NCBI GenBank assembly: GCA_016704485.1
Contig: JADJAA010000001.1
Location: forward strand, 1,554,824 to 1,618,823
Length of the DNA: 64,000 bases
Direction of reading: 5' to 3'
Source: Flavobacteriales bacterium
GTDB taxonomy: Bacteria; Bacteroidota; Bacteroidia; Flavobacteriales_F; PHOS-HE28
This document shows positions 17,621 to 41,884 of the stretch, piece after piece (the first letter of the stretch is position 1; every line of letters begins with the position of its first letter). The notes beneath the pieces were generated by a model that saw nothing but the letters and a program-made list of their open reading frames with translations, searched no databases and was not told where the DNA came from. A program made the position numbers and the translations under genes.

Positions 17621-20600
17621 TCAAGCACTGCGCTCACCCGGCTGTGCGTTCCCTTGCACCCACTCCACTACCGAGATGATCTTATCCTGATCATTCTCAT
17701 TCGGGAATAGGCCGAAGATCCCTTCTTGGTGTAGGTCCGTGAACGTTGAACCCGGCTCTGCGAGCATGCGTTTGTCGATCACGCCGTTCACCGTGAGGTG
17801 CCGAATGATGGAATCGATGAAGTGGATCTGCGTAGCACTGAAGATGGAGCCGGACAAGAATTCGCCGAAGGCTGCTTTTGCTGCGCCTTCATCAAGGCCG
17901 ATGATGCTGCGAATGAAATAGCCTAGTGGCCGTTCCTCGCCAAGTTCCTTCATCAAAGCCTCCTTCGTGCCGCGTTCGTCTCCATCGAACAGGATGCGTT
18001 CCAGTTCCACTAGCTCAGCGGTCGTGATCGGCTCATTGGTGTATAGTTTGTGAATGGTAAGCTGGTGTTTGTGCGAGCGGATGAACTCCTCTACACGCAT
18101 CCGATAGCTACGCATGGTGTAGCTACCTGGCATGGAGATGATATCCTCACCCTCGCTCACCAACTCATCTCTCAGGTCCGAGTATACCACTTTGCGTTCC
18201 TCGCGCGGTATCAAGCGCACTAGATCGCGCAATTGTTTTCGTGTGAATTCCAAGGCTTCCAGACCGAACACAGCGGCTCGTTGTTGTTGATCATTTGCGA
18301 CATCAAGAACTGCTTTGATCGCTGGATACCGCTCCTGCACTACGGGAATGTTGGAGAGCCGGGCAAGCTGTGTGGCGGTTGAGGCCAACGTGCGGAACAG
18401 GCGATCTACTGACGGCGCCTCTTGGGCCACAGCAATTTCCAGATCGAGCATAAGTAGGTCAAATCGTTTGGCCAGCTCGTCCTTGTCCGGTAGTTCGATC
18501 AAGTGACCAACGGTCTCGAACAGATCACTGATCCCGCTTTTTGATAACGCATTCCATGCGGTACGTTCACGGTAGTGATCGAGCACACGTTGCGCAGGAC
18601 GAATGCGCACGGTGTGCCGCAATTCCCAAAGTGCCTGGACCCAACTATGCGCACTATTCAAAAGCTCAACGCGTAGTGCTTGATCTTTTGGTACCTGATG
18701 GGCTGGTTCACGCAGTTGTTCACTAAGTAGGATAGTTGCTTCAAAGATCCGTTGCGATAGGCTGGGGGAGCGCACAGGTTCAATGCCTTCCGGCCGCAGG
18801 TTGAAGAAGCTGTAGTTGCCACAGAGATCGAAGATCCTGAAGTTCTCCTTGTGCTGGCCGGGACCGAACAGATCCGGGCATAAGCGTGTGCCGCGGCCAA
18901 CCATTTGCCAGAACTTGGACTTGCTATAGACCGGTTTAAAGAACACCAAGTTCACGATCTCAGGAATATCAATACCCGTATCCAACATATCCACACTCAC
19001 GGCGATCTGTGGATACCGGTCCTTATCACTGAAATTATCTATGATGCTCTGGGAGTATTGCTCCTTACTGTGTACCACCGACATGAAATGCCCACCGTAC
19101 TGCGGGAACTGATCTTCAAAACGGTTCTGTATGGCCCGGGCATGGTCTATGTTCCTTGCAAAGACAACGGTCTTGCCCAGCTTCTCACCACCTTCCACTT
19201 TGATCCCGTTCTCCATCACATAGGCCAACACCTGATCGATGGTGTTCGAGTTGAAGAGCCAGTTATTGATCGCGGGCGCTCCGATCTCTTCGGGTATATT
19301 CCCTTGGTCGTCCCGGAAGGTCTCTTCGTAATGTGTCCTATCGCTCTCACTCAGGTCATCGTAGCGGATACCGCGTTGCAGAAAGCCGAAGTCCACTGCT
19401 TTGCCAATGGGCGGCACCAGAAAACGATCGGCTACGGCCTGCCCTAATTCATAGAACGATGTCGGGTTATGCTCTTCGCAATCGAACAAGGCATAGGTAT
19501 CCCGATCCCCTTGGTCGTGTGGTGTTGCAGTAAGGCCGACCAACAAGGAATCGAAATAGGTGAAAATAGCACCGTACCGATCGTACACTGAGCGATGCGC
19601 CTCATCCACAATGATCAGATCGAAGTGACCGACACCGAAGGTCTTCACATCATCACTCCGCACTTGGTCCACGCGGTTCATTACCGTGGGGTAGGTGCTG
19701 AAGACCACCCGTGCGCTTTCATCATAGCGCTGTTTGGTGAGATCCAATGTGGTAACATTCGGCAGGTTCTTCTCAAAGGCCCGTTTTGCCTGTGTGACCA
19801 AGGCATTGCGATCAGCGAGAAAGAGCACACGCTTCGCCCAATTCGCTTTCAGTAGAAGGTCCACTAACGCGGCAACGGTACGCGTCTTGCCAGCCCCAGT
19901 GGCCATTACGATCAATGCTTTTCGCTTAAGACCGCGCATGCCATCTTCATCCACCCAACTTTCTGCAACCCGCTTGATCGCTTGATGTTGGTAATAGCGT
20001 TCCACGATCTGCTCATCGATCGGCACATGCCGAATGTTCACACGACCGATACGCCGATCAACGACCCGTTGCAATTCGTCCCGCGTGTAAATGCCCTGTA
20101 CAGCGCGTGGACCATAAAAGGTGTCATCCCAGATCCACGTATCGAAACCGTTGCTATAGAATATCACCGGGCGCTGTCCGGTCATGCGTTCCAGGCAATC
20201 AGCGTAAAGGCTTGCTTGCACACGGCCTTGTTGGGCATCGTGGGTGGTGCGCTTGGCCTCTACTACGGCCAGCGGTTTACCATCTGCACCCCAGAGCACG
20301 TAATCTACCTTGCCGTTGCCGTTGGGATTGGTGCTCAATGGCATCCCTGTTACCGGGTATTCGATCACGTTGGATGCGGCAGGGTCCCAGCCTGCTTCGC
20401 GCAACAGTTCATCAATGAAGAGTAACCGTGTATCCGCCTCCGAATATTCAGAAGCAGGTATGGGTATGTTCTCATGGCGCTCCTTGCGCTCCTGGATCGC
20501 TGCCAGGCGTTCTGCCAATATCTGCTTTTCTCCTTCTAATTTCAACCGTTGCTCGCGCTCGGTCTCCATCGCTACACGTTGCGCTTCATAACGCTCCTGT

Positions 20601-21079
20601 AACTGTTGAAGCTCCGCGCTGTTCGGAACTTCCTTCACTTTCACTTGTACTATGAGTGCCTCCTCTTGGAATGTTCCTACCTCGATGTCGAATGCGCTGT
20701 ACGTACGACCCATCCATTTCAAGAACCGGAACAAGAGGCGCAATGAGGCTACGCTCTGGCTCTCCACCACCTTCTTATCATGCGCAGCGGCATTGCCGGT
20801 ACGCCGGATGTACTGCAGGTCGATGTAGATGGGTGGTGGTATCAGTACCCGGAAGGACCGTTCATCCATCAACGCGCTCAACTGGCTGTTGTAAGGGCGC
20901 TGTAGGTCACTGTCGTTATCATACAGCCAGTGCACGGTACGTTCCAACGCACGGCGGGCATACACGGCAGAGGCGATCGGTGCGGCCAAGGCATACCGCT
21001 CCGCGTCCATGGCCTCCTTCGCAATGGAGGGCCACTCTTCAACGAGGAAGCGGAAGTTGCTCGGGGTGCTCAACGACAT
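17621..21079 (-). CDS. hsdR: Type I restriction enzyme R subunit with N-terminal DUF4145/HEPN-like domain and EcoEI_R_C-type C-terminus
   Basis: N-terminus YARRALERTVHWLY...YIRRTGNAAAHDK. Nuclease VDYVLWGADGKPLAVVEAKRT. Helicase MATGAGKTRT, IIVDEAHRS, LTATP. C-terminal FIRSIIGLDEGAAKAAFGEFL... Confidence 0.9.
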   Translation of the reverse strand: MSLSTPSNFRFLVEEWPSIAKEAMDAERYALAAPIASAVYARRALERTVHWLYDNDSDLQRPYNSQLSALMDERSFRVLIPPPIYIDLQYIRRTGNAAAHDKKVVESQSVASLRLLFRFLKWMGRTYSAFDIEVGTFQEEALIVQVKVKEVPNSAELQQLQERYEAQRVAMETEREQRLKLEGEKQILAERLAAIQERKERHENIPIPASEYSEADTRLLFIDELLREAGWDPAASNVIEYPVTGMPLSTNPNGNGKVDYVLWGADGKPLAVVEAKRTTHDAQQGRVQASLYADCLERMTGQRPVIFYSNGFDTWIWDDTFYGPRAVQGIYTRDELQRVVDRRIGRVNIRHVPIDEQIVERYYQHQAIKRVAESWVDEDGMRGLKRKALIVMATGAGKTRTVAALVDLLLKANWAKRVLFLADRNALVTQAKRAFEKNLPNVTTLDLTKQRYDESARVVFSTYPTVMNRVDQVRSDDVKTFGVGHFDLIIVDEAHRSVYDRYGAIFTYFDSLLVGLTATPHDQGDRDTYALFDCEEHNPTSFYELGQAVADRFLVPPIGKAVDFGFLQRGIRYDDLSESDRTHYEETFRDDQGNIPEEIGAPAINNWLFNSNTIDQVLAYVMENGIKVEGGEKLGKTVVFARNIDHARAIQNRFEDQFPQYGGHFMSVVHSKEQYSQSIIDNFSDKDRYPQIAVSVDMLDTGIDIPEIVNLVFFKPVYSKSKFWQMVGRGTRLCPDLFGPGQHKENFRIFDLCGNYSFFNLRPEGIEPVRSPSLSQRIFEATILLSEQLREPAHQVPKDQALRVELLNSAHSWVQALWELRHTVRIRPAQRVLDHYRERTAWNALSKSGISDLFETVGHLIELPDKDELAKRFDLLMLDLEIAVAQEAPSVDRLFRTLASTATQLARLSNIPVVQERYPAIKAVLDVANDQQQRAAVFGLEALEFTRKQLRDLVRLIPREERKVVYSDLRDELVSEGEDIISMPGSYTMRSYRMRVEEFIRSHKHQLTIHKLYTNEPITTAELVELERILFDGDERGTKEALMKELGEERPLGYFIRSIIGLDEGAAKAAFGEFLSGSIFSATQIHFIDSIIRHLTVNGVIDKRMLAEPGSTFTDLHQEGIFGLFPNENDQDKIISVVEWVQGNAQPGERSA

Positions 21080-23476: not shown

Positions 23477-24274
23477 CTATCCACTCCACTTCACGATATC
23501 CGCCACTACCGTCTTGTAGCTCAAGCCACGCAGCCGTTTCACCACCACGATGCGGGTATCTCCGTACTGCTCTGCGCGTTCGACCGACGAGTCAGTTGGT
23601 CTACTTTCCTTGATCCCCAGCCCCGTGCGAAAATGCGACCACCACGTATCGTTGGTGAGCACCACACAGAGTTTCGGCTGTAATTCCTCCAGTTCCATGC
23701 GCACCAGATCCACGCATTCGGGTCGTTGCAGGATGCGCTCGTCCACATCCGGATTGGCCACTTCGCCACGGTTCTGCGGTGCGATCTTGTAGAGGTTGGA
23801 CCATACCAGTTGACGGTTCCATTCCCACGCGTCCTCATTTGTGATGCCGTGCCGAACCTGCATCAGCTTGACCGTGGCCTGCCAGAAGAACGATGACCAA
23901 GCGCGGTAGTTCTTCTCCCGTTCGGTATACCAGGCTTGTTCTTCCGGGCTACACTTGTTCAAGGTAGTGTTCGTCCACAACACGTTCACCCAATCCAACG
24001 GGGAGTGGTCTTTGAAGGGTTCGTTGGAGTAGCGCTTGCTCTCTTCTATGCGGCCCCTCGGTACTGCCTTCGTGAAGTCCCACTCCGGGTGCCAACCACC
24101 CACGGCCTGGCCGTAGACCAGCACATCAACCGGTTCATTCGTTCGCGTACCGATGCTCGGATAGAAGTCTGTGAAGTGGGTGCGTTGCGGAAAGGTGCGC
24201 GCCAGTCGACGTTGAAAGGCTTCCAAGTGTTGCTGGTAGGCGGCGTTATAGGTTGGTGAGAGGGTGCGATACAT
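23477..24274 (-). CDS. Hypothetical 266-aa protein lodged between hsdS and the hsdS remnant
   Basis: ATG at 24274 (MYRTLSPTYNAAYQQHLEAF...). The longer track ORF to 24451 runs out of frame through the hsdS 3' end. There is no confident family. VDVLVYGQAVGGW faintly resembles UDG-superfamily motif 1, but this is unverified. Confidence 0.6.
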   Translation of the reverse strand: MYRTLSPTYNAAYQQHLEAFQRRLARTFPQRTHFTDFYPSIGTRTNEPVDVLVYGQAVGGWHPEWDFTKAVPRGRIEESKRYSNEPFKDHSPLDWVNVLWTNTTLNKCSPEEQAWYTEREKNYRAWSSFFWQATVKLMQVRHGITNEDAWEWNRQLVWSNLYKIAPQNRGEVANPDVDERILQRPECVDLVRMELEELQPKLCVVLTNDTWWSHFRTGLGIKESRPTDSSVERAEQYGDTRIVVVKRLRGLSYKTVVADIVKWSG

Positions 24275-24302
24275 TATGTCCGTGCTGCGTGATCCTCTTC
24301 CG

Positions 24303-25448
24303 TTAGTTCCCCAACTCCCCCCGGAACGCCCCCTGCAACAAACTCCCGAACAAGCCCTCGCTCTGGTGTAAGCTTGCTGCAATGCAGGTGCGCTGCTTTT
24401 GGATGTTATGGAGTAATGTTCCGAACCGTTCCTGCGCTTTGAGTGGAACAAGTGGAATACGCATTCTTCGGATCTCTTCTGTTGTGATATTCTTGAAGAT
24501 GGCTCCCACCGACTTATCGCTGACCCCTACGGCGAGCATATTCAGATAATGGTAAATGAACCTCAGGTCAAAGCCTTTGTCAAAGTCACGAAATCCTGCA
24601 AATCCATCGTGTATGCAACAGTCGACCATCAGGATCGCTGGCAGGCCTGGCTTCCCACTTACAGCCATCACCAAGTCACCACGTTTCATTGGACGACTGC
24701 GCTGTGAGCCTTCAATCGTGAGTGAATCGATCTGAGGTGTCACATACATCCCATCACGGGTCAAGTCTGCAACCATTAGGCGAGGCACGGGACCTCCAAA
24801 GTATCGCGCATCACCCTGTGGTCTTGGACTGCTCCCACGGACGACCTCACACAACGAACCCAAGTCTACAGTTTCCCACCCCCTCTCATTCCGCACCGGA
24901 TCCCCGAACAGCTCCAAGAACAGGCTCTTGGCAAGTTGGTCGTAAACCGCCAAGGTTCGCCGGTCGTTGGCCACCAGCGCCTGCGCCTTGTCCAAGATCG
25001 CCGCGATGCGACGCTGCGTGGGGAGGGCGGGCGGAGCAAAAGGTAAGCTGCGGATATCTTCTATCTTGAAGCCTTTCACCGTCGCTCCGTTTCCACGCGA
25101 AATGAAGTAATTCTCTTTCGCAAATAGAAAGTAATAGAGATAGGTCTGGTCAACCTTGCCATTTATAACAAGCGCCTTCAGATCCTGATTGAATGCCATC
25201 GGCACGTTCGTGATCGACATGCGCCCAAGAGCCATGCGTGTTGCAATCAATAACGTTCCGGCTGGAACTATCTGTGTCGCACAATTATCTACACCGCGTT
25301 CAGTGATCGACTCGTACGTCTCCGAAATATGCTTTGATGTAAGATCCTTCACCGTAGCCCATGGGACATCACCTTCCCAATAGCCCTCGATATCGCGATT
25401 AGGAGTACCACCACCAAGTATCTGGATATAATTGCCCAGCACGCTCAT
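24303..25448 (-). CDS. hsdS: Type I R-M specificity subunit
   Basis: 381 aa with two TRD halves, each followed by a conserved helical spacer (...LPTQRRIAAILDKAQALV... and ...LKAQERFGTLLHNIQKQR...). 4-nt ATGA overlap with hsdM. Confidence 0.9.
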   Translation of the reverse strand: MSVLGNYIQILGGGTPNRDIEGYWEGDVPWATVKDLTSKHISETYESITERGVDNCATQIVPAGTLLIATRMALGRMSITNVPMAFNQDLKALVINGKVDQTYLYYFLFAKENYFISRGNGATVKGFKIEDIRSLPFAPPALPTQRRIAAILDKAQALVANDRRTLAVYDQLAKSLFLELFGDPVRNERGWETVDLGSLCEVVRGSSPRPQGDARYFGGPVPRLMVADLTRDGMYVTPQIDSLTIEGSQRSRPMKRGDLVMAVSGKPGLPAILMVDCCIHDGFAGFRDFDKGFDLRFIYHYLNMLAVGVSDKSVGAIFKNITTEEIRRMRIPLVPLKAQERFGTLLHNIQKQRTCIAASLHQSEGLFGSLLQGAFRGELGN

Positions 25449-27004
25449 TTCAACAACGCCTCCAATTCGTCCAACAATTTCACACGGTCGGCGGCCAATT
25501 GGCGCAGGCCGGGTTCTCCCTTTTTGCCGTTGATCAGCTCGGCGGGCGTGGCATACTTCACTTGCTCGTACACCACCTCCTTGTAGCGGTTTATGCTGAG
25601 GTCCCAGTTGTTGGCCTTCAAGTCCGCAAAGGGCACCAGAAAGCTCTGGTCGGTTCGTGCACGTTTGCTTTCACCTTTCGCACCGAAGCGCGCTAGGATG
25701 TCGGCGATGTTGCTTTTCTCGTGCAGCGTTTTCGCTCCCTTGGTGGGCTCGGTGTATTGGAGTTCAAGCTGTTCTTCGGTGAGTTGCGGTGTGCGCTTAT
25801 CATCCAACGAGAAACCGTCGGCACGCATGTCGTAGAACCACACGTTGTCGGTACCGCCGCTATCGGTCTTGGTAAAGATCAGCACCGCGGTGCTCACCCC
25901 TGCATAGGGTTTGAATACGCCGCCGGGCATGCTGATCACCGCTTGCAATTGCTGGCGTTCGATCAGTTCCTGCCGCAGTTGCTTGTGCGCCTTGCTGCTG
26001 CCGAAGAGCACACCATCGGGCACGATCACAGCTGCGCGGCCACCTGTGCGGAGCATGCGCAGGATCAGACCTAGGAAGAGCAACTCGGTCTTCTTGCTGC
26101 TCACTGTGCGCAAGATCGCAGGGTCCACAGCGTCGTGGTCCAAGCTGCCTTTGAACGGCGGGTTCGCTAACACCAGCGAGAAGCGCTCACTGATGTGGCC
26201 TTGCTCTTTGCTAAGCGCATCCTGCCCGATCAGTTGCGGGTGCTCAATGCCGTGCAACATCATGTTCATGGCACCAATGCGCAACATGCTGGAGTCGAAC
26301 TCGACCCCGGTGAAGAGGTTGGTGTTGTAATGCTCGCGGAACTTCTTCTCGTGGAAGCTGTCCGGGTGCGTGCGCCGTATCTCTTCGCTTGCCGCCACCA
26401 AGAAACCGCACGTGCCGGCACTGGGATCGCAGATGGTATCGGTGGGTTGCGGAACCATCAGTTGCACCATCATGCGGATGATGTGGCGCGGTGTGCGGAA
26501 CTGGCCGTTGCGTCCTGCCGTAGCGATCTTGCCCAGCAGGTATTCATAGAGGTCGCCCTTGGTGTCGCGGTCGGCCATGTCCAGCGCGGCGATCATTTGC
26601 ACGGCGCGGTCCAGCAACCGCGCGGAGGGGATCATGAACGTAGCACCCTTCATGTGCTCACTGAACACGCTGCCCTCGCGCCCCATCTGCTTCATGAAAT
26701 CGAAGACCGTGAGGTTATCGTTCTTCGCATCAGGCCGCGTAAAGAGCGCGAACAATGTATCCGGGTCCTTGTCCTTGAAACTGCTCCACCGCAACGCCTT
26801 GTACTTGGGCGGGTAAATGGGATCCTTGATGGGCCCACCGAGCTTGGCGCTCTGCTTCTCTTTGGTGGTCTGGATCTCATCCATCCGGCGCAAAAAGAGC
26901 AAGTAGGTGATCTGTTCGATAACCGTGAGCGGATTGGCGATGCCGCCAGTCCAGAAGGCCTCCCAGAGGCGGTCGACGTCGGAGCGGAGTGTTCCGTTTA
27001 TCAT
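25445..27004 (-). CDS. hsdM: Type I R-M DNA methyltransferase subunit
   Basis: HsdM N-terminal domain. FRTPRHIIRMMVQLM, motif I ICDPSAGTCGFLV and motif IV VLANPPFKGS are all intact. Confidence 0.92.
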   Translation of the reverse strand: MINGTLRSDVDRLWEAFWTGGIANPLTVIEQITYLLFLRRMDEIQTTKEKQSAKLGGPIKDPIYPPKYKALRWSSFKDKDPDTLFALFTRPDAKNDNLTVFDFMKQMGREGSVFSEHMKGATFMIPSARLLDRAVQMIAALDMADRDTKGDLYEYLLGKIATAGRNGQFRTPRHIIRMMVQLMVPQPTDTICDPSAGTCGFLVAASEEIRRTHPDSFHEKKFREHYNTNLFTGVEFDSSMLRIGAMNMMLHGIEHPQLIGQDALSKEQGHISERFSLVLANPPFKGSLDHDAVDPAILRTVSSKKTELLFLGLILRMLRTGGRAAVIVPDGVLFGSSKAHKQLRQELIERQQLQAVISMPGGVFKPYAGVSTAVLIFTKTDSGGTDNVWFYDMRADGFSLDDKRTPQLTEEQLELQYTEPTKGAKTLHEKSNIADILARFGAKGESKRARTDQSFLVPFADLKANNWDLSINRYKEVVYEQVKYATPAELINGKKGEPGLRQLAADRVKLLDELEALLK

Positions 27005-27017
27005 GGGGTGAAGATGG

Positions 27018-28226
27018 TCAATGTTTGGTGATGGTGGTAAATTCCCATTTAGACTGTCCGTTCAGTTCGACTTGTTTGACTTGGCCGGAAACGAGGTCGC
27101 CATCCACAAGGCTGTGTAGTTTTATCAGATCCTTGTTGATGTAGGCATCGCCAGCATGGGCGTAGGTGTTATCGTTGCGTTTCTTGACCACGACGCGGCC
27201 CAGTTCTTTGGTATCACCGTCGAGTAGGGGAACTCCGTCGCTGCCTACCGCTTCCTCGTGTAGCCAGGTTCGGTTCGCCTTGGGGTCTGGATACTTTGCT
27301 GCGAACTTCTTGAACCAGACCAACACGTCCATGAGCTGGAACACGATGGTGCTCAAGAGGTAAGGCGTTACACCATGCTCGTGTAGTGCTTCGAGATTGT
27401 CCAAGCTGTAATTGGAATCCTCAGCGGTCTCGTCCGCATGCGAGCTTTCGCTGGTTACCCGCAGAATATTGTCCAGTGCATCGGCAACGATCCGGGGCAT
27501 CATCGGGCGGTCACACTTCAAGGCCACCGTGGCCGAAGAACGGCTCGGATAAAGCACGCGCTCGCCCCGCAGGAACAGTGCTGACAAGCGTTGGTTGACC
27601 CTCGGCTTTACAAGGACATCGGGTAGTAACCCGTGCCGATGCGCGGCATAGAAGAAGTGCTCCACTACCTGACGCAAAGGATTCATGAATAAGCGATCAC
27701 TACCGGACTTGTCCCCGCGATCCACAAAGCGCAATGCGTCCATGAACATAGGGTCGGCAACGGCATCCAAATAAGGAACTTGGAGCACTGCGAACACATC
27801 GGCATACCTATCACGAAGCGCTTGCTCGTTGCTTCGATCAACAAGGCTCTGTAGTTCCGCGTATAGGTCCTTCTCGTTCCCTTTCAAGTACCGCCGCTCA
27901 TCACGACGGTTCTTTGTTGCACCTTCGTCAAAGCCGGTATTGATCACATACGGAATATGAATGTTCGCTCCTTTCCATTGGTCCAGATCCCTGCGGGCTT
28001 CATGCAGGTGGTCGATGTCCTCGGTGGGTGAATGTTCATCCACCTGCCCTCTGGCATCGAGGATCAAGGCTTTGAAACGCTTTTCTCGGATCGGTTCCTT
28101 AGCCTCGGCCCAGGTCTTGAACCAAGTCACTTCGAAACCGTGCGCGACCGCCTTAGCAATTTGGGCTTTGGCGTATGCTTCATCGTCATCTACTAAGGCG
28201 ATCGGAACCAGGTCAAACAGTGTCAT
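27018..28226 (-). CDS. Receiver (REC)-domain protein with DUF4145/HEPN-like middle domain and C-terminal beta-rich domain
   Basis: ATG 28226 gives MTLFDLVPIALVDDDEAY...FKALILDARG...IPYVINTGF, a REC-like acidic pocket, Asp and Thr. The middle region NPLRQVVEHFFYAAHRHG ... LDNILRVTSESSHAD parallels RRALERTVHWLY ... YIRRTGNAAAHDK in the HsdR N-terminus (Rx4-6H). 14-nt overlap with the upstream kinase gene. Confidence 0.6.
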   Translation of the reverse strand: MTLFDLVPIALVDDDEAYAKAQIAKAVAHGFEVTWFKTWAEAKEPIREKRFKALILDARGQVDEHSPTEDIDHLHEARRDLDQWKGANIHIPYVINTGFDEGATKNRRDERRYLKGNEKDLYAELQSLVDRSNEQALRDRYADVFAVLQVPYLDAVADPMFMDALRFVDRGDKSGSDRLFMNPLRQVVEHFFYAAHRHGLLPDVLVKPRVNQRLSALFLRGERVLYPSRSSATVALKCDRPMMPRIVADALDNILRVTSESSHADETAEDSNYSLDNLEALHEHGVTPYLLSTIVFQLMDVLVWFKKFAAKYPDPKANRTWLHEEAVGSDGVPLLDGDTKELGRVVVKKRNDNTYAHAGDAYINKDLIKLHSLVDGDLVSGQVKQVELNGQSKWEFTTITKH

Positions 28227-30909
28227 GCGAAATGGGAAGGTCAATGGTGAAGTGGACAAACATTTGAGTGGATACAGCTTCCCGGTCAAATGGTATCCAA
28301 TGATTCTCGTCTATACGTTGATCGCGTTCAAAACTCGATCGGTACTTGTCATCGCTCACTGGCAGGTTACCCGACACGAACTTTCCGCCGTGGTTGGCAA
28401 TGATCCGATCGATCAGATAGCCGCCTATGCCATTGCCCTTTTTCATGTCCAGACGCTTGCCAAAGGTGATGAAGTGCTCATGGGTAAAACCTTCCGGAAA
28501 GGGTTTGCCGTTGTTCTCGATGGTGATAACCAATCGCGTTCGTTGAGGTTCAATACGCGTTGATACCCTCACCCGTACGACCAATTGTTCCTGATCCGAT
28601 CGAAGGCCGTGTTTGGCCATATTGATGAACAAGTTCTGGATGACAAGTGCGAACTGTTGTTGATCGACATGTGCGATCACTCCTTCAGTGGTTTCTAGTC
28701 CAGCTTCACATTCGAAAATGACCATAAGCGCTTTCACCTGGTCGGCAAGTCCGCGCAATTCCGTTCGGAACAGTCGACGAAGGTCGATGGGCACTGGTCT
28801 TAGACTCTCCTTATCTGATCGGATCACCGCATTGATCAATTGAAAGAGACCGCGCATGCGATCCAATCCACTATTCATTGTATCTAGGGCGGTGGTGATC
28901 GTAGACTTTTCAACTGGGCCCAAACTGTTGAGTACTGCATGGATCTCGGCCATGGGTTGCTCCAGAAGCGCCACCACCGGGCGGAAGCTGTGCTCCACTG
29001 CACCAAGGATCTGCCACTCATCAGTGGAGAGGCCATGCTGTTTTTCCTGCCTAGCGATCTCCTCCTTCTTCGCCAATAGAATGGATTCCTTCCGTTCGCG
29101 AACAATGCGCAGTTGATCCTTGAGTTCGGGTAAGCGAACCCGAATTCTCAGAACGTCTGCTTTGGCTATGAAAGCGATCGTACTTCCTTGGTGGTATGCG
29201 TCGAGCTGATCTTGGATCGTGGGCGTTCTTAGTTCTGTTGCGAGGTATTCGGTATTAGCACGAGCCGCATCCACACGGAACATGAATACATTGCTTCCCA
29301 CGGCGATCGGTCCATCTACCGGGTCGAATAAGGTCGGCTTCAACTTTCCGCCCACCCGTGCAAGTAGCAGTGCTGGCACATCCAATCTCTTCAGTCCCTT
29401 CTTGACAGAACCGGTTTCATGTTGCCCATCACGCGCCGTGCGCCTCATGTCGAGGACATCCGTTGAAAGCTCGGAGACCTGGAAGAGCGGCAGACCGGCG
29501 AGGTCGCCCATGGAGAGGATATCGTCCGAAAGCACGGTGCCGAGTTCAACCACGTCCACACCATCCGCTTCGGCCACGATATGGGCTTGTTGAAGCAGGC
29601 TGGCAAACCGACTCATGCTCCAAGACACATGCTCGTCGGAACGGATGTCAGAAACCTTCACGTCCAAAACACCTTGTAAGGTATAAGTGCTATCCAACGC
29701 CTGCAGCACGCTGCTAACATCGAGTGTTATTTCGGATCGCGTCTTGTATGTGACATGCAAACCCGCATCCACGAATCGGACAGGCGCATTCGTTGGCCGT
29801 GATCCATTCAAAACAATGATCGAGGTCTTTATCCCTGAGTAGGGTGTGAAGGATCCTGCTGGCAACGAGATCACTGCTTCGAGCAACCCTAGGTCAAGAA
29901 TCTGTTTGCGTAGATGCGCTCTGTTGATGCCGAACAACATACTCTCGGGCACAAGGATCACCGCCTTCCCCTCGGGTGCAAGCCGCTTGAGGATCTGGTT
30001 GATCGCTATCTCATAGGGTTCTATCGCGCGTAGCCTTCCTTCCTCTTTCACTCGACCACCGAAAGGTGGTGCACTAATGCAATGCGTATACTTCTTGTTG
30101 GAAGCACCGGGTGCTGATGGTTCGTTCAAGGCGGCGTTCAGGTCTGCCCCGAGAATACGTGCTTGCAGCGTATTGAAGAAGAATGCGAATTGGTTGAAGA
30201 ATACCGCGTCGAGCTTTACAGAATGTGGCGCACGCGCTGCGAGCACTGCTGGCAATACGCTCGCATCCGCAGCTGGGTCGAATACCTCTTCCACGTCTCC
30301 GAGCAGCCGCGCCATAAGCATTGCAACGGACCATGGCGTACAGAACTGGCCCATGTGACTATCGCGCAAGAGGAGGCTACGCATTTCTTCCACATACTCG
30401 ATCGGTTCCAAACCCGCTGATGCCATGAGAAAAAGCTCAGTTTGTACTGGGCTTGTTGCCAGTGCGCCGCCATTTTTAAGAAGATACGAATGCTGCTCCC
30501 CAAAGTCCTTAAACTCCTCTGCCAATTCATTCAAGGTGGACCATAATCCTTCTCCTCTTTGAGCGATCGTAGGCAACACTCCTGCTGGGCGCACGGCCAA
30601 GGCATAAATGAGTGCCAGCTCCAAGCCAACGGTCTGCGCGAAGGGCATGGATCGTAGCGCATTGCGCAATTCCCATGCGTGGGCCTGAAAAAAACGGACC
30701 CGGTTCAACATACGTTCTGGATCCAACTGTAAACTACCGTCATCGGATATACTAACACGCCCACCAGACAACTCCACCTCAGCAAGCAAGCTCGATGGCT
30801 CAACGTCCTTCTGGCTCAATAAGACCTTGACGATATTACAGACACCCTCCAAAGTATCCGAGCCGTTCTTCAGGCGAAGGGCACATATTATGGCGTCTAT
30901 CAGTTTCAT
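28213..30909 (-). CDS. Chimeric sensor histidine kinase: HsdM-like N6-MTase fold (degenerate motifs) + HsdS-like TRD + DHp/HATPase_c
   Basis: MTase-like: GQFCTPWSVAMLMARLL, VFDPAADASVLP (motif I lacks GxG), HCISAPPFGG (Ala where N/D/S is expected), KAVILVPESMLFG...LLEAVISLPAGSFTPYSGIKTSIIVLN. TRD-like: VELGTVLSD...LLLARVGGKLKPTLFD...VGSNVFMFRV...YLATELRT. Kinase: H-box GAVEHSFRPVVALL, N-box VIQNLFINMAKHG, ITIENNGKPF, GNGIGGYLIDRII. Confidence 0.7.
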   Translation of the reverse strand: MKLIDAIICALRLKNGSDTLEGVCNIVKVLLSQKDVEPSSLLAEVELSGGRVSISDDGSLQLDPERMLNRVRFFQAHAWELRNALRSMPFAQTVGLELALIYALAVRPAGVLPTIAQRGEGLWSTLNELAEEFKDFGEQHSYLLKNGGALATSPVQTELFLMASAGLEPIEYVEEMRSLLLRDSHMGQFCTPWSVAMLMARLLGDVEEVFDPAADASVLPAVLAARAPHSVKLDAVFFNQFAFFFNTLQARILGADLNAALNEPSAPGASNKKYTHCISAPPFGGRVKEEGRLRAIEPYEIAINQILKRLAPEGKAVILVPESMLFGINRAHLRKQILDLGLLEAVISLPAGSFTPYSGIKTSIIVLNGSRPTNAPVRFVDAGLHVTYKTRSEITLDVSSVLQALDSTYTLQGVLDVKVSDIRSDEHVSWSMSRFASLLQQAHIVAEADGVDVVELGTVLSDDILSMGDLAGLPLFQVSELSTDVLDMRRTARDGQHETGSVKKGLKRLDVPALLLARVGGKLKPTLFDPVDGPIAVGSNVFMFRVDAARANTEYLATELRTPTIQDQLDAYHQGSTIAFIAKADVLRIRVRLPELKDQLRIVRERKESILLAKKEEIARQEKQHGLSTDEWQILGAVEHSFRPVVALLEQPMAEIHAVLNSLGPVEKSTITTALDTMNSGLDRMRGLFQLINAVIRSDKESLRPVPIDLRRLFRTELRGLADQVKALMVIFECEAGLETTEGVIAHVDQQQFALVIQNLFINMAKHGLRSDQEQLVVRVRVSTRIEPQRTRLVITIENNGKPFPEGFTHEHFITFGKRLDMKKGNGIGGYLIDRIIANHGGKFVSGNLPVSDDKYRSSFERDQRIDENHWIPFDREAVSTQMFVHFTIDLPISHDTV

Positions 30910-30971: not shown

Positions 30972-32234
30972 TCAAGCGACTTTCTCCAGTCGGTTTGTCG
31001 GCAGAAGTTGGGCAGCCATACGATCCATGACCTCCCATTCCGGACGTGTGTACGAGTTGCTCTCCGTGACCACCGGGATCCTGAATTCGCCCATGGCATC
31101 CTCGCGCATAGCCCATTGATCCTTCTGGTCGTAGAGCTTTGTTCCGGGCAAAAGCATCAGCGGCCAAGCCTTAACGTCCCTGCAGCCTTTGGATAAGAGG
31201 TGGTCGATACTACGCTGGAAACTTTCCAAGGTCTGTCCGGGCAACCCGTAGATCAAACTCACTTCGAAAGGAATCTCGCGCTCCACAAGCTGTTCAATAG
31301 CAGCATCGACAAGATCCATCCGATTGGCGCGGTCAATTTTCTTGGACACTGCATGGTCCGTGGTCTGCAACCCGAACTCCAAGTGGAAGTTGGCTTGCGT
31401 ACAAAGGTCCAGGAATGCATTAACCTGTTGGCCTCGGATATTCTCAAAGCGCGATTGCAGGGTGAAGGTGGAGCGCGTACGGAGTTGAACGATCTCTTGC
31501 ATTATATCCAGGCACTCCTTCCCAGCGTTGAAGATGGGGTCGAGTATGTTCACGCGTTGCACACGATGTTCAGTGAGAAATGCTAACTCTTTAAAGACTT
31601 TATCCAGTGGGTGCTTATGCACGCGGTGAGTGGCGAGGTCGCGGTGTGCGCAAAATGAACACCGGTAGGGGCAGCCGCGTTTGGTCTCCAACCGTACCAT
31701 ACCGGCTCCCATTGGTACAGGCAATTCGCCAGTGAGATACGGTGAGGCCAGTTGTGTGAAGTCCACTGGTACGTTCACGAACACGGGTTCGTCGGCATCG
31801 AGATGGTCCGTCAATTCGGCAAAGGCTTGTTCGGCTTGTCCGGAGATGAAGACCTGGCAATCCGGATACCGACGCAGCAATTCTGCTCGGTTCCCGTAGG
31901 TGACTTGATACCCTCCGAGGACCACCTTGCCAAGGAACCCAAGACGACGAAGCAATGCGATGATGCCATTGGTGAGGTACTCGTTCCAGATGTAAGCCGA
32001 GAGCGCGATGGCGTTAAAGCGGCTCACATCAAGCGCCGCGAGTTGCACTTCGAATTGCTCGGGTGTGGCCGTGCCGCCGTGTTCGAGCATGTTGATCGAG
32101 AGGTGTTCCACGTGCATCTGTCCACGCAGCCGTTCATTACTCCGTTGGTGTGCCAAGAGAGATGCGATCGCCAAGGGCTTGGTGATCTCACCGTGCCGGA
32201 TCAGGTCGAAGGATATGATGAGCGTGTTCGTCAT
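30972..32234 (-). CDS. Radical SAM enzyme with N-terminal B12-binding-like domain
   Basis: ATG 32234 (MTNTLIISFDL...). Rossmann-like N-terminal domain VVLGGYQVTY. CxxxCxxC cluster in ETKRGCPYRCSFCAHRD. Confidence 0.8.
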   Translation of the reverse strand: MTNTLIISFDLIRHGEITKPLAIASLLAHQRSNERLRGQMHVEHLSINMLEHGGTATPEQFEVQLAALDVSRFNAIALSAYIWNEYLTNGIIALLRRLGFLGKVVLGGYQVTYGNRAELLRRYPDCQVFISGQAEQAFAELTDHLDADEPVFVNVPVDFTQLASPYLTGELPVPMGAGMVRLETKRGCPYRCSFCAHRDLATHRVHKHPLDKVFKELAFLTEHRVQRVNILDPIFNAGKECLDIMQEIVQLRTRSTFTLQSRFENIRGQQVNAFLDLCTQANFHLEFGLQTTDHAVSKKIDRANRMDLVDAAIEQLVEREIPFEVSLIYGLPGQTLESFQRSIDHLLSKGCRDVKAWPLMLLPGTKLYDQKDQWAMREDAMGEFRIPVVTESNSYTRPEWEVMDRMAAQLLPTNRLEKVA

Positions 32235-32343
32235 TGGTCCTCGCCACCAAGGGTCTATATGGTTGGATAATCGCTCAACCAACGAACTTCCCTATGGCAA
32301 CGGACCAAAAGTCCCGGTCACCTGTGCAGTCTATCTGCACAGT

Positions 32344-33354
32344 TCATTTCGCGTAGTTCTTCTTCATTTCCATCACCCGCAAAAGCAGCGCTTGGCGTAG
32401 TTCTTCCGGCGCAATAACCTGTAGCCCTTCTCCATAAGATAACAACAAGGCTTGTAGCTCGTAGTTCAGCTTCACTTCTAAACGAATAGTCGCGCCGCCG
32501 TCTTTTCTCTTCACTACTTTCTGCGAACCGTGTATAGGCTTTGACTCCAAATAAGGCCAAAGTCTATCCGTGACTTGGATCTTGACAACAACAGCTTCTT
32601 GATCCGCAGGTACACTTACACCAACAACATCCTCAAAATACTCCGTGAAATCCACCTCATCGTTCGGTATGTATTTCACCTTACTGGGTACAATATCCCG
32701 GATCCGGTCCAAGGCCATATTGACAATACGCCCCTCTTCCTCAAGACCAAAAACAAACCAACGGTTGTTATACTGTTTCAAGTAATACGGATGGAGCAAC
32801 ACAATGCTAGGCGCATTTTGCTTGAAGCCTTGGTAAGATATTTCCAAGGCTTGCTCATTGATGATCGAATGAAATAATGTGGTAATGTGCTCGGCACCTT
32901 TCAAATACGGGTTCTGCTCAAACTCGATGACCTGAGCAGCCCCTTGTTTCAGCCCGAAACCAGCTTCCAACCGAGCAACTAATTCATCTACCCATTCAAA
33001 CTGCGGCATGCCCTTAAATCGGCTCAGCGTTAAGAGCGCCTCCTTCAATTGTTCCGCTTCGCTCTCGTTCAGCGGTCGCTTGTTGATAGAGAATTCAAGG
33101 TCACTGTACCGGTAAAAAGTACGCTTTCCGTCTTTGTGTTTCTCCAGCGGGATAGCCCATCCTTGTTCGCTCTCCATGTACTTGATGTCCTCGAAAACTT
33201 GGCGGCGGCTGATGCTTGCACCTGCTCCGGTGAACTCCTCCAACGCCATGTTGCAAGCTTCCATCAGGTCTTCGATGAAATACTCGCGCCCACGGTTCGC
33301 AAAGCAACGGTCCATTGTCTGATAGCGAATAAGGGCATTCTTATTTACGGGCAT
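32344..33354 (-). CDS. WYL-domain transcriptional regulator (BrxR/CapW-like layout: wHTH + WYL + C-terminal domain)
   Basis: N-terminus MPVNKNALIRYQTMDRCFANRGREYFIEDLMEACN. WYL core VLLHPYYLKQYNNRWFVFG...NMALDRIRDIV. It is the first gene of the minus-strand operon. Confidence 0.8.
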   Translation of the reverse strand: MPVNKNALIRYQTMDRCFANRGREYFIEDLMEACNMALEEFTGAGASISRRQVFEDIKYMESEQGWAIPLEKHKDGKRTFYRYSDLEFSINKRPLNESEAEQLKEALLTLSRFKGMPQFEWVDELVARLEAGFGLKQGAAQVIEFEQNPYLKGAEHITTLFHSIINEQALEISYQGFKQNAPSIVLLHPYYLKQYNNRWFVFGLEEEGRIVNMALDRIRDIVPSKVKYIPNDEVDFTEYFEDVVGVSVPADQEAVVVKIQVTDRLWPYLESKPIHGSQKVVKRKDGGATIRLEVKLNYELQALLLSYGEGLQVIAPEELRQALLLRVMEMKKNYAK

Positions 33355-33489: not shown

Positions 33490-33904
33490 CTGCCAGCTGG
33501 GTGGTAACCTGCACCAAGCTTGATGGTACCACACACCAAGCTTAGTGGTACCCTGTGCCAAGCTTAGTGGTACCTTGCACTAAGCTTGATGGTACCCTGC
33601 ACTAAGCTTAGTGGTACCCTGCACTAAGCTTAGTGGTACTCTGCACTAAGCTTAATGGTACCCTGCACCCAGTTGGGTGGTACCCTCCACCCAGCAGGGT
33701 GGTACCCTGCACCCAGTTGGGTGGTACCCTGCACTAAGCTTAGTGGTACCCTGCACTAAGCTTAGTGGTACTCTGCACTAAGCTTAATGGTACCCTGCAC
33801 CCAGTTGGGTGGTACCCTGCACCCAGTTGGGTGGTACCCTGCACCCAGTTGGGTGGTACCCCGCACTAAACTTAATGGTACCCGACACCAAGCTCAATAG
33901 TGCA
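33490..33904. repeat. Tandem array 1: about 19 contiguous 22-bp units, each carrying a 14-bp palindrome plus GGTACC
   Basis: The units are CTGCACTAAGCTTAGTGGTACC (core CACTAAGCTTAGTG) or CTGCACCCAGTTGGGTGGTACC (core CACCCAGTTGGGTG). Units at 33597-33728 are repeated at 33729-33860 as a 132-bp (6-unit) higher-order repeat. Edge units are degenerate. Confidence 0.95.
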
Positions 33905-33993: not shown

Positions 33994-34202
33994 CTATACC
34001 ATACTACTATAGGGCACATTGAACCTTAGTCTGGACTTCCGCCTTCGGAACTGCATTCGCTGCCAGATGATCATTGGGGTGCAATTATCCCAAACCTATA
34101 CCATATTACTATAGGGGGCATAAGCCTCCATCTCCGGCTCGTGAACTTTGGAGGTAAAGATGGTGTGATTTGACCTACTACCTATACCATATTACTATAT
34201 GG
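33994..34202 (+). promoter_or_regulatory. Three dispersed copies of a 21-bp element CTATACCATA(T/C)TACTATA(G/T)GG
   Basis: Copies at 33994-34014, 34096-34116 and 34182-34202, with starts 102 and 86 bp apart, all in the same orientation. Two copies end in ACTATAGGG, identical to positions -6 to +3 of the T7 promoter consensus. Function is unknown. Confidence 0.5.
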
Positions 34203-34291
34203 TGCTTTGCACCGTGCGCCTCGTGGTGCACACTTGTGGTTCAGAACTGCTTCATGTAGGCCTGGTGCAAGAGGCTGTATTTGTTCCATTG

Positions 34292-34753
34292 GTACATGGC
34301 CTTGTCCCGTAAGTACATGTACTTGTGCCTTTGGTACATGTACTTGTCCCGTGAGTACATGTACTTGTCCCGTAAGTGCATGTACTTGTCCCGTGAGTAC
34401 ATGTACTTGTCCCGTGAGTACATGTACTTGTCCCGTAAGTACATGTACTTGTCCCGTAAGTACATGTACTTGTGCCGTTGGTACATGTACTTGTCCCGTA
34501 AGTACATGTACTTGTGCCGTTGGTACATGTACTTGTGCCGTTGGTACATGTACTTGTGCCGTGAGTACATGTACTTGTGCCGTGAGTACATGTACTTGTC
34601 CCGTAAGTACATGTACTTGTGCCGTTGGTACATGTACTTGTCCCGTAAGTACATGTACTTGTCCCGTAAGTACATGTACTTGTCCCGTAAGTACATGTAC
34701 TTGTCCCGTAAGTACATGTACTTGTGCCGTGAGTATGTGTACCTGTACCATGT
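34292..34753. repeat. Tandem array 2: about 22 contiguous 21-bp units built on the palindrome GTACATGTAC
   Basis: Units are GTACATGTACTTGTCCCGTAA, with variants ending ..GTGCCGTTG, ..GTCCCGTGA and ..GTGCCGTGA. Adjacent units form GTACATGTACTT-GTCCCGT-AAGTACATGTAC, a 12-bp stem with a 7-nt loop. The period is a multiple of 3, so all six frames appear open. Confidence 0.95.
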
Positions 34754-35042
34754 GTAACGATACTTCAAGTTACAGTACACTTACTTGATACAGAGGTGCT
34801 TATGCCATTGCGTGGGGTATGCCTGCTTGTAACACGGGGACTGATAACCCACTCAGCGTCAGGCGTAAAGAGTGATCCGAACGTTGCCCGTGCTGCATAA
34901 CCCATCCTCGAGCGGCCGCGTGCGGGCTACAGTAAATGAAAAGAACCCCGGCCAGTTGTGCTAGGATTCTTCCGTTCGGGGATGGTGTATGAGTGGCAGG
35001 GTCGTCTGCTATGCGGCAGACTGACCCTGAGCGGGTTTAAAA

Positions 35043-35457: not shown

Positions 35458-36426
35458 TCAAGCCTTTATGAACTCGTTCACAAAAGCTTGTACAAATTGC
35501 TTGGCTAAAGCAGAGTAAGGCTTGGTCGGCTCTGTCAGTTGCATCAGCAATTCCACCTCTTGCTCGATCATCGCCTCAATTGTTCCTGTGGTCTTTTTTA
35601 CAAGTTTGTTCAATGTACGTGTTGGTACTTTATCCTTGAATGATCTGATATCCTTACCGATCTCGTTCGATAGGTCGATCAATTTCAAGATCATCTCAAA
35701 ACGCATTTTTAATCGCAGAATGTATTCTCTGCGCATATCGACCAACCCCTTTCTATTCAAGCCGTAGATCTCAATGGAACGGATCGCTTTTTGCCAATGG
35801 ATCTCCCTTTTTATCACGTTCTCTGATGAGGGCAAAGCAATGGCCTTCATTACTCCTGAGTCATCGTATTCCAAGTATTTGCTAGGTTCGTCCGTACAAG
35901 GGTTCAACAACAAACATTGTTCGCCTGAAATATCGAACAGCGGCGCACTCGCACGCATTGTTTCATCAAACAATGGAAAAGAGTTTGCCTTTCCTTGTTT
36001 TAGCTTTTTCCATTGATAGGACCCATCTATGGGGTTCTTTCGATACACATATTGATAGCGCGCTCTATTGCAGTCTATGCATGAAGGGAGTAGATTATCC
36101 CATTCCATTGCGAGCTTAGCATATACACCTACTTTAGTTTCGGTCTTGTTCGTCAATTCTACGAGCACTTCGGATTTGGGTCTGAAATGCTCAATATCCA
36201 GCGGTTGTGTGCGCGTGTAAGGTGATTCGCAATATGCACATTTACCATGGAACATAAGCTCCAACAACTCAGGCACTTTTTCGTGCTTGTAAAGCTTGAA
36301 ATCGGGCTTTAGGTCCTTGTGGAAATCGCTTCGAAGCCATGCTTCCACCTCTTCCTTTTCTTTGTTGAAGGCATCCGAGGTTATGGTAAGTGCCTGCGGG
36401 GCATTTACGCGTTTTCGTTTGATCAT
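35458..36426 (-). CDS. PtuB-like HNH endonuclease (TIGR02646-type)
   Basis: HGKCAYCESPYTRTQPLDIEHFRPKSE...WDNLLPSCIDCNRARY, followed by LLLNPCTDEPSKYLEYDDSG. It starts 8 nt downstream of the ATPase gene. Confidence 0.75.
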   Translation of the reverse strand: MIKRKRVNAPQALTITSDAFNKEKEEVEAWLRSDFHKDLKPDFKLYKHEKVPELLELMFHGKCAYCESPYTRTQPLDIEHFRPKSEVLVELTNKTETKVGVYAKLAMEWDNLLPSCIDCNRARYQYVYRKNPIDGSYQWKKLKQGKANSFPLFDETMRASAPLFDISGEQCLLLNPCTDEPSKYLEYDDSGVMKAIALPSSENVIKREIHWQKAIRSIEIYGLNRKGLVDMRREYILRLKMRFEMILKLIDLSNEIGKDIRSFKDKVPTRTLNKLVKKTTGTIEAMIEQEVELLMQLTEPTKPYSALAKQFVQAFVNEFIKA

Positions 36427-36434
36427 TGAAGAGC

Positions 36435-41864: not shown

Positions 41865-41884
41865 ATACTTTTCAGTTCAATTAT

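Follow-up and report, generated by a model that had tools for sequence, protein, structure and literature searches.

The locus described here raises the question of what a protein does that resembles the methyltransferase of a restriction-modification system of Type I over most of its length and a sensor kinase at its C-terminus, and of whether it modifies DNA, reports on it, or does both. The gene concerned, at 28213..30909, encodes 898 amino acids (aa) in an intact open reading frame (ORF) and lies in a window of 64,000 nucleotides, meaning the whole stretch of DNA that was analysed, from a Flavobacteriales bacterium (assembly GCA_016704485.1, contig JADJAA010000001.1, positions 1,554,824 to 1,618,823); positions are those of the window, and its features lie on the reverse (-) strand unless stated otherwise. 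A preliminary description, made from the sequence letters, had proposed a pseudo-methyltransferase repurposed as a sensor of DNA sequence or modification state. Analysis by Pfam, AlphaFold2 (AF2), Foldseek and profile searches against PDB sequences established that the protein is a sensor histidine kinase whose input module consists of an HsdM fold with degenerate S-adenosylmethionine (SAM)-binding and catalytic motifs and a single HsdS-type target recognition domain (TRD), that is, an HsdM-HsdS(1/2) arrangement. Its C-terminus is, as judged from alignments and the predicted model, a complete kinase core of dimerisation and histidine phosphotransfer (DHp) and catalytic and ATP-binding (CA) domains with an invariant His. 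On balance we favour, while allowing for substantial doubt, a DNA-linked two-component switch which controls a Type I restriction system within an anti-phage restriction operon.

The kinase begins with a winged-helix domain (aa 1-65; 30715..30909), a divergent HARE-HTH domain for which AF2 predicts the secondary structure H-H-H-E-E. Pfam gave no direct HARE-HTH match on the window kinase, and the assignment is made through the relative P0074, in which Pfam places HARE-HTH at residues 100-163 (E 2e-13); this region aligns to the N-terminus of the window kinase, position 4 of the family profile aligning to P0074 residues 102 onward. There follow a helical domain identified by Foldseek as equivalent to the N-terminal domain of HsdM (aa 70-181; 30367..30702) and a Rossmann methyltransferase-like domain, predicted to be catalytically dead (aa 185-400; 29710..30357), which is matched by Pfam N6_Mtase over aa 303-396, aligns with the HsdM proteins of EcoR124I and V. 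vulnificus and contains, at aa 187-203, the HsdM-type helix GQFCTPWSVAMLMARLL that had been read from the translation. A single HsdS-type TRD-like domain, which is not hypervariable, occupies aa 450-595 (29125..29562; PADLOC Specificity_I and PDB HsdS chains) and includes the strings by which a TRD was first suspected (VELGTVLSD, aa 454-462; VGSNVFMFRV, aa 537-546; YLATELRT, aa 555-562). The helix of the HsdS conserved region (LP.L..Q..IV...; aa 596-625; 29035..29124) then runs into the DHp domain, with AF2 helices over 596-625 and 629-662. The DHp helical hairpin (aa 629-697; 28819..29025) carries the phospho-acceptor His640 (codon 28990-28992), and the CA domain (HATPase_c; aa 705-895; 28225..28797; Pfam match aa 749-844) has its N box at N763, its G1 box at N799-x-G801 and its G2 box at G827-x-G829; the strings from which a kinase core had been deduced were located at aa 636-646 (GAVEHSFRPVV), 758-768 (QNLFINMAKHG), 798-804 (ENNGKPF) and 825-832 (GNGIGGYL).

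The identity of these domains was accepted because Pfam, PADLOC, the profiles searched against PDB sequences and the AF2 model compared by Foldseek all agree. Pfam N6_Mtase matched the kinase above its gathering score (E 5.7e-15), with the match confined to the profile's C-terminal half, and HATPase_c matched with 35.3 bits against a cut-off of 26.4 (E 1.7e-8), while Methylase_S stayed below threshold on the window protein (E 0.057) and reached significance in its relatives (down to 5e-12). PADLOC models gave MTase_I at 9.7e-20 and Specificity_I over aa 472-639 at 4e-8 to 2e-5. A family profile built from 19 full-length homologues was run on all PDB sequences and retrieved HsdM chains at 6e-23 and the HsdS chains 5ybb_D and 3okg at 6.6e-14, the HsdS match spanning profile positions 543-636, where the TRD ends and the conserved-region helix lies; the C-terminal sub-profile retrieved class-I histidine kinases, down to 5.7e-15. 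The AF2 model, built on the same 19-homologue alignment with a mean predicted local distance difference test (pLDDT) of 79, matched the HsdM structures 7eew, 7vru, 3lkd, 5ybb, 2okc and EcoR124I (Foldseek E 3e-18 to 1e-9) over some 440-490 columns on HsdM chains of 470-530 aa, and the HK853 kinase core, DHp included, at E 2e-10 and a template modelling (TM) score of 0.7. Six relatives examined with Pfam gave N6_Mtase at 1e-24 to 1e-42 and Methylase_S at 1e-4 to 5e-12, and HATPase_c was recovered in five of them; one relative carries two N-terminal HARE-HTH domains (2e-13).

Whether such a protein could still methylate DNA is answered by its motifs. In hidden Markov model (HMM) alignments to the HsdM proteins of EcoR124I, V. 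vulnificus and Thermoanaerobacter, motif I (DPAAGSG or DPAMGTG) becomes DPAADAS within the remnant VFDPAADASVLP (aa 209-220; 30250..30285), which places Asp215 at the first-glycine position, and motif IV (NPPY or NPPF) becomes APPF within the remnant SAPPF (aa 279-283; 30061..30075), with Ala in place of the catalytic Asn. The acidic residue of motif II is also lost, aligning to a variable N/S/T/D position. Both remnants had been named in the preliminary description, and its claim of degenerate motifs withstood a search of the whole protein: APPF is the sole.PP[FYW] anywhere in the 898 aa, and GxG occurs only at aa 119 and in the G2 box of the kinase, with none in the methylase region. Across the 19 homologues D211, P212, A214 and D215 are invariant, as are P281 and P282, position 280 being A, I, V, M or K. 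As the SAM-binding glycines and the catalytic Asn are gone, the module of the window clade would be able to bind but not to methylate, and its methylase is predicted to be catalytically dead; in its remodelled form motif I does not drift but is invariant, which suggests that the former cofactor pocket is still under selection for something.

A census of 257 full-length members of the superfamily, in which H-box His and N-box Asn occur in all 257 by construction of the sample, established how far this loss extends. The canonical form (N/D/S)PP(F/Y/W) is present in 149 members (~58%); in the others PPF is preceded by A, T, H, V, I, M, Q or C. The glycine of motif I is kept in 216 (84%). The DPxAD substitution is restricted to the window's clade, which is the only clade seen with both motif I and motif IV lost. 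The dead methylase is thus specific to this clade within the superfamily, and the term pseudo-methyltransferase, while apt for the window protein and its close relatives, does not extend to the family at large. Since every sampled member keeps the PPF scaffold and the residues of the kinase, and ~42% of them have lost the catalytic Asn, the function under conservation looks to be binding and sensing, not methyl transfer. The many relatives that retain NPPF/NPPY and the motif I glycine, together with the preservation of the whole HsdM fold, could be taken to indicate an active bifunctional enzyme, which methylates DNA via non-canonical motifs and signals as well. For a clade with an invariant Asp at the first motif I glycine, without the motif II acid, with Ala, Val, Ile, Met or Lys as the catalytic residue and with no substitute motif in the protein, however, this is scarcely credible.

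Turning to the kinase core, H640, N763, N799, G801, G827 and G829 are invariant in the clade (19 homologues), their equivalents occur in 255-257 of the 257 census members, and the C-terminal profile aligns His640 with the phospho-His of the solved kinases 8u4x, ThkA (3a0r) and 9m08. The G1 box has Asn for Asp in the form NxGxP(F/I)P, which is common to ThkA 3a0r (VWNSGPPIP) and 9m08 (VVNSGEPIP), and NxG is found in G1 in 255 of the 257 census members; a pseudokinase, as might be supposed from the Asp-to-Asn change, was rejected, the same NxG being present in these two solved kinases. The kinase has the features of a soluble class-I (HisKA-like) sensor histidine kinase, for which autophosphorylation is predicted. 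Of the two kinase profiles named in the preliminary description HATPase_c matches and HisKA does not, so that the DHp assignment rests on the profile and fold alignments. The missing HisKA match, the non-acidic position following His640 and the occurrence of HATPase_c in GHKL ATPases in general are also what would be expected if the C-terminus were an ATP-driven clamp or motor of the MORC or MutL kind working on DNA held by the module, without phosphorelay and with a His of structural importance only. This is very improbable, as the region matches specifically the DHp and CA domains of class-I kinases (HK853 at TM 0.7; E values to 6e-15) and a receiver (REC) protein with an intact acid pocket is translationally coupled downstream; the H-box His also occurs in 257 of 257 sampled members, but this sample was built to contain it.

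That downstream gene, at 27018..28226, on which the preliminary description is silent, encodes the cognate response regulator, a protein of 402 aa with a REC domain (aa 1-117), a novel helical domain (aa 118-320) and an S1/cold-shock-like oligonucleotide/oligosaccharide-binding (OB) fold (aa 322-401), and it starts 14 nt ahead of the kinase stop codon, the two genes thereby overlapping. D13, D14, D57, T97 and K115 of the regulator are invariant within the close clade, and in homologues at 16-22% identity D13, D14 and D57 remain so; there T97 is replaced by Ser, a canonical alternative, in the loci L007 and L008, and the K115 column of the alignment with these distant homologues is no longer invariant. 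The receiver acid pocket is intact, and as this response regulator is adjacent to the kinase and translationally coupled to it, real phosphotransfer from kinase to regulator is likely on the strength of sequence and gene arrangement. At the C-terminus 14 of 22 members are matched by S1CSD-TOTE-2, the best at 2.6e-6, and Rho_RNA_bind gives 3.5e-4. In the central domain Arg185, Glu189, Ser262-His263 and Lys306 are invariant and Asp203 and Asp300 nearly so. A HEPN Rx4-6H motif considered for this domain was rejected, neither the Arg nor His190 being conserved. As the central domain is without a detectable homologue, any assignment of the regulator output is a guess.

The genes that surround this pair were compared across twelve loci, comprising the window and 11 others (designated by L numbers or, in one case, as the P0018 locus), of which eight belong to the clade with the dead methylase, hereafter the dead clade, and four do not. 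In the window the operon is headed by a WYL/WCX transcription regulator gene of the BrxR/CapW-like kind (32344..33354; Pfam WYL and WCX), followed by a gene for a B12-binding radical-SAM enzyme in which CxxxCxxC is present (30972..32282; Pfam Radical_SAM and B12-binding; best NCBIfam match KedN5-type), the kinase gene and the regulator gene. Next come a canonical hsdM (25445..27004; 519 aa; Pfam N6_Mtase 1.6e-57 and HsdM_N; PADLOC MTase_I 1.7e-168), which retains ICDPSAGTCGF and ANPPF as had been noted before, and a canonical hsdS with two TRDs (24303..25448; Pfam Methylase_S in two stretches), which overlaps hsdM by 4 nt. A conserved protein of ~266 aa is encoded 3' of hsdS (23477..24277); it is 60% identical to L001:17687-18511 and has no Pfam, PADLOC or NCBIfam match. 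An HsdR of the EcoAI type (17621..21079; NCBIfam PRK11448 2.6e-85; PADLOC REase_I 2.7e-160) is probably the restriction subunit belonging to this system. The co-directional block is split, between the 266-aa gene and hsdR, by a + strand gene (21999-23375) whose product is membrane-anchored and resembles class III adenylate/guanylate cyclases.

This gene order is conserved. The kinase gene is present in 12 of 12 loci, with the next gene overlapping it or at most ~15 nt away in each, and alignment confirmed that this next gene belongs to the same regulator family in L001, L003, L004, L005, L007 and L008 as well as in the window. Ten of the 12 have a WYL/WCX gene upstream, L005 having none and L012 being cut at that position, and hsdM-hsdS directly follow the WYL-kinase-regulator module in 11 of the 12; hsdR is directly downstream in L004, L007, L008, L010 and L012. 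From locus to locus the downstream HsdM changes family: it has 519 aa (window), 704 aa (L007) or 813 aa (L012), and it is replaced by an M1/M2 pair in L008 and in L010. The kinase module is for this reason regarded as portable. In the two last-named loci the pair consists of different HsdM paralogues in tandem 3' of the kinase-regulator genes (L008 13696-16631; L010 13774-17329).

What the module might sense is best approached through its TRD-like domain. It has the TRD fold and the conserved-region helix of a half-size HsdS, lacks the hypervariability of HsdS TRDs and ranks among the best-conserved regions of the kinase. In five dead-clade loci the mean pairwise identity is 82% for the neighbouring HsdM and falls to 28% and 18% for TRD1 and TRD2 of the neighbouring HsdS, whereas for the kinase it is 44% in the TRD-like domain, 50% in the methylase-like domain, 29% in the DHp region and 34% in the CA domain. 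Similarly, TRD identity tracks methylase identity over 34,716 superfamily pairs, and only 1 of the 703 pairs at 70% methylase identity or above has a TRD identity below 40%. Against the TRDs of HsdS the sensor TRD shows a generic similarity of 20-30%, its own locus being no better than foreign loci, and a specificity shared by the sensor TRD and the adjacent HsdS was consequently left unsupported. It is thus unlikely, from these comparisons, that the sensor tracks the recognition sequence of the restriction system, and the earlier idea of a sequence sensor has to be revised. As the TRD-like domain never swaps, unlike the HsdS TRDs in the same loci, an invariant ligand is favoured. It may be a feature of DNA, whether generic or foreign, a site or modification that stays fixed, a protein that mimics DNA or acts as a partner, or the restriction complex itself.

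The same comparisons bear on the view that the pair is a housekeeping controller, with a role like that of a C-protein or of restriction alleviation, which reports the protection of host DNA or the assembly of the methylase core and tunes hsd expression against self-restriction, with no detection of phage. Two-component systems usually regulate gene expression, the module is upstream of, co-directional with and tightly coupled to hsdM-hsdS in 11 of the 12 loci, the operon is headed by a WYL repressor and the S1/cold-shock domain (CSD) of the regulator, an RNA/single-stranded DNA (ssDNA)-binding fold, would suit antitermination or translational control. We nevertheless consider this control of addiction and establishment unlikely to be the answer, as the sensor TRD varies independently of HsdS specificity and so cannot be reading the sites of its own system, as L009 has no Type I genes, and as Type I systems elsewhere do without such a controller.

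An invariant ligand would equally be expected of a guard or decoy, in which the dead M2S-like clamp baits DNA-mimic anti-restriction proteins of the Ocr/ArdA type, or other attackers of Type I methylase cores, and their capture turns the kinase on and elicits a back-up response. PrrC, which guards EcoprrI, and PARIS, which senses Ocr, offer parallels. The closest solved structure, 7eew, is an HsdM-S1/2 fusion crystallised with Ocr in its DNA groove; a conserved TRD-like domain suits a sequence-independent ligand, and a decoy should look like a catalytically dead copy. The module is, in addition, found upstream of Type I systems of several HsdM families, and its setting is that of a defence island, with Septu in the window and a Tiamat-like TmtA helicase downstream in L001. 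The proposal is, for all that, one of reasoning by analogy; ~58% of the superfamily keep an apparently active methylase site, which a pure decoy would not need, and no obvious toxic effector gene is part of the core module. We rate a guard function as a credible but rather improbable explanation.

The DNA-linked switch that we prefer may be pictured as follows. Histidine kinases are obligate dimers, and the kinase would dimerise via its DHp domain; given also that the 7eew-type fusion is reported to rebuild M2S1 as a homodimer, the kinase dimer would plausibly present an M2S1-like clamp, with the conserved-region helices feeding the DHp domain. A ligand held in the methylase/TRD clamp, which is probably invariant rather than the system's own target sequence (DNA of a generic or foreign kind, a site or mark that does not change, or an anti-restriction protein that mimics DNA), would act through the HsdS conserved-region helix on DHp helix 1 and so set the kinase/phosphatase state. 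The phosphoryl group would then pass from His640 to Asp57 of the regulator, whose helical and S1/cold-shock output domains would act on nucleic acid, and the expression or activity of hsdM, hsdS and probably hsdR would thereby be controlled, the entire unit standing under the WYL repressor inside a defence island. The analysis shows what the domains are, which motifs are lost, and that the phosphorelay residues and the order of the genes are conserved; from these we infer the geometry of the dimer clamp, the binding of DNA, the direction of signalling and the output.

Several points weigh against this switch. Canonical HisKA kinases have Glu or Asp after the phospho-His as the general base, and here the residue after His640 is Ser641, which in relatives is S, R, Q, E, T, K or N; Pfam HisKA has no match on the kinase, and AF2 confidence is just 56-59 over aa 620-650, the junction through which the signal would have to pass. 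A TRD that does not diversify also fits a loss of DNA binding altogether and, if the sensor reads methylation, nothing ties its specificity to the neighbouring HsdS. On the regulator side, a domain-only profile of the central domain found nothing significant among PDB sequences, and the regulators of L004 and L009 have no S1/CSD domain. L009, finally, has an AAA_15/AAA_21/DUF3696 ATPase gene downstream in place of Type I genes, and control of a Type I system can therefore not be the sole role of the module.

The gene for the radical-SAM enzyme, which is present in seven of the eight dead-clade loci and in none of the four others and overlaps the kinase start in L012, invites a further proposal. 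In this proposal the B12-dependent radical-SAM methylase writes a non-canonical mark, for example a C-methylated base, the dead SAM/adenine pocket reads it, and the kinase reports unmarked foreign DNA. The pocket of the dead clade combines an invariant DPxAD with a mostly hydrophobic residue before PPF. The case is one of correlation, namely the distribution of the radical-SAM gene (7/8 against 0/4 loci) and the invariance of the remodelled motif I, and we regard the proposal as a long shot; if true, this would be an epigenetic self/non-self system that is written by a radical-SAM enzyme, read by a pseudo-methylase and transmitted by phosphorelay. The enzyme matches the model PDC-M51A over profile positions 6-413 of 420 (E 6.6e-117); no other operon gene matches a PDC-M51 model, and no publication describing the PDC-M51 candidate was found in the searchable literature.

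Two other genes accompany the dead clade outside the window. A DUF2130 gene occurs in six of the eight dead-clade loci and is not found in the window; it is located between the WYL and radical-SAM genes (L003 1588-2835; also L004, L005, L011 and the P0018 locus), and its product has a weak match to Mrr_cat, a PD-(D/E)xK restriction endonuclease domain (E 4.8e-4), and an N-terminal zinc-ribbon-like segment. A helicase of ~1,820 aa is encoded a few genes downstream in four dead-clade loci (L001, at 18663-22703, L003, L005 and P0018); that of L001 matches Tiamat TmtA (8.6e-144), and the window has none. The kinases of these four loci are just 35-55% identical to that of the window, and the persistence of the helicase despite this divergence suggests that it is functionally linked to the module.

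As regards the distribution of the family, an exhaustive profile search of 1.84 billion representatives at a cut-off of E <= 1e-30 yielded 1,137 proteins, of which the best 150 score at least 288 bits and are mostly of 750-1,030 aa, running from the methylase region to the kinase end, with a dozen shorter fragments. The architecture, which had been put forward as unfamiliar, is therefore no one-off, amounting to ~10^3 clusters at 50% identity. A family of ~20 members, as returned by a word-indexed search, was an artefact of the word index that the exhaustive search overturned. An indexed search seeded by distant members gave 616 clusters, which include Rufibacter tibetensis (complete genome CP012643, the source of locus L007, whose homologue has intact motifs), R. 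roseus and metagenome-assembled genomes (MAGs) of Flavobacteriales and Bacteroidales; all named members are Bacteroidota. The dead-clade motif was found in 1 of 185,579 species-representative genomes, a Flavobacteriales MAG, the pattern used being specific to DPxAD and silent on the wider family. Members are usually annotated as 'N-6 DNA methylase' or 'type I restriction enzyme M protein', one Joint Genome Institute (JGI) annotation reading 'type I restriction-modification system DNA methylase subunit/two-component sensor', and neither the kinase fusion nor the regulator has a dedicated Pfam, NCBIfam or PADLOC model.

The wider window is a defence island, with Septu, a HEC-05-like gene and a RecQ/UvrD fusion helicase. 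The Septu system (35458-38822, -) comprises a PtuB of 322 aa (1.2e-68) and a PtuA of 795 aa (1.6e-157; both PADLOC), the first ~240 residues of which also match PtuB/HNH models, so that this PtuA appears to carry an extra N-terminal PtuB-like domain. Just past hsdR (10664-17534, -) a 1,610-aa fusion of RecQ/DpdF-like and UvrD/GajB-like helicases stands beside a 604-aa HEC-05-like protein. Three ORFs of 604, 365 and 263 aa adjoin Septu at 38824-42676 (-) and have a lower GC content (44-48%); none has a PADLOC match, and the 604-aa ORF, the only one of these scanned against NCBIfam, has no match there either. The WYL gene and the Septu genes are separated by 2.1 kb, in which there are two long arrays of tandem repeats, one at 33501-33894 with a 22-bp unit in ~18 copies and a 132-bp super-period, the other at 34292-34746 with a 21-bp unit in ~22 copies at 91% identity, which gives rise to spurious repetitive ORFs on both strands (34182-34788).

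Among known systems, the nearest to the input module is the HsdM-HsdS(1/2) fusion of V. vulnificus YJ016 (PDB 7eew; Seo et al. 2022, cited in PMC12429846), a 'minimal intact methyltransferase' whose homodimer is reported to rebuild the M2S1 clamp. Like the window kinase it combines, in one chain, the N-terminal helices of HsdM, the Rossmann domain, a single TRD and the conserved-region helix, and it is the best match both by fold (E 3e-18, 581 aligned columns) and by sequence profile (E 6e-23). Unlike it, the window kinase has no motif I glycines, adds a HARE-HTH-like N-terminus and a DHp/CA kinase, and has a TRD that does not diversify among relatives. In the alignment chain A of 7eew has ISGVPFG where NPPF is expected, and motif IV may be non-canonical in that relative too.

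With HK853, ThkA and EnvZ the window kinase shares the DHp hairpin with its H-box His, the three boxes N, G1 and G2 (G1 with the NxGxPIP of ThkA) and a neighbouring REC gene; it departs from them in being cytoplasmic and in having a methylase/specificity input instead of PAS, HAMP, GAF or periplasmic domains, and from class-I HisKA kinases in its non-acidic residue after the His and the unmatched Pfam HisKA. The regulator output, a novel helical domain with S1/CSD, is outside the standard output classes. Two-component systems are the main signalling device of bacteria, and a methylase/specificity clamp would be a new class of sensor input to them; if the switch is real, it would link a His-Asp phosphorelay directly to the condition of DNA or of the restriction machinery.

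With canonical Type I systems (HsdM2-HsdS-HsdR2) the sensor has in common the HsdM and HsdS parts of which it is made, and its gene shares an operon with hsdM-hsdS, with hsdR nearby; it differs from them in being, by its motifs, catalytically dead, in its conserved TRD and in its fusion to a kinase. The placement of such modules before Type I systems in many Bacteroidota, where the annotation 'N-6 DNA methylase' hides them, suggests a regulatory or surveillance layer on classical Type I restriction, absent from current models. A family with both intact and dead methylase sites is, in addition, a natural experiment on how an enzyme becomes a sensor, and the new output domain of the regulator and the radical-SAM partner of the dead clade are of further interest.

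Protein phosphorylation is likewise coupled to methylation-based or other immune operons in Pgl/BREX type 2, through the Ser/Thr kinase PglW, in MADS and in CapK/CapS. In none of these is the kinase fused to a methylase or TRD, nor do they signal from His to Asp through a REC protein. The GHKL kinase CapK is activated directly by ssDNA, controls transcription of its immune operon and phosphorylates a serine of a STAS protein (PMC13373217). Fusions of Schlafen proteins to a minimal histidine kinase have been reported near BREX (PMC12839542), and these too differ in architecture from the window kinase. MADS joins a methylase, a specificity subunit and a kinase, with MAD6, MAD7 and MAD8 mandatory in its model (bioRxiv 10.1101/2023.03.30.534895). 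Membership of MADS was rejected for the operon studied here, as only generic matches to mad2/MAD2 (methylase) and mad5/MAD5 (specificity), and none to MAD3, MAD4, MAD6, MAD7 or MAD8, were seen among its proteins, each of which was scanned against PADLOC or NCBIfam and not all against both. A histidine kinase with methylase/TRD input, or such an operon, was not found described in the searchable literature, which omits most subscription journals. Two-component and Type I systems are themselves of known kinds, and what the locus adds to them is a class of input domain, an output domain for the regulator and an association with a radical-SAM enzyme.

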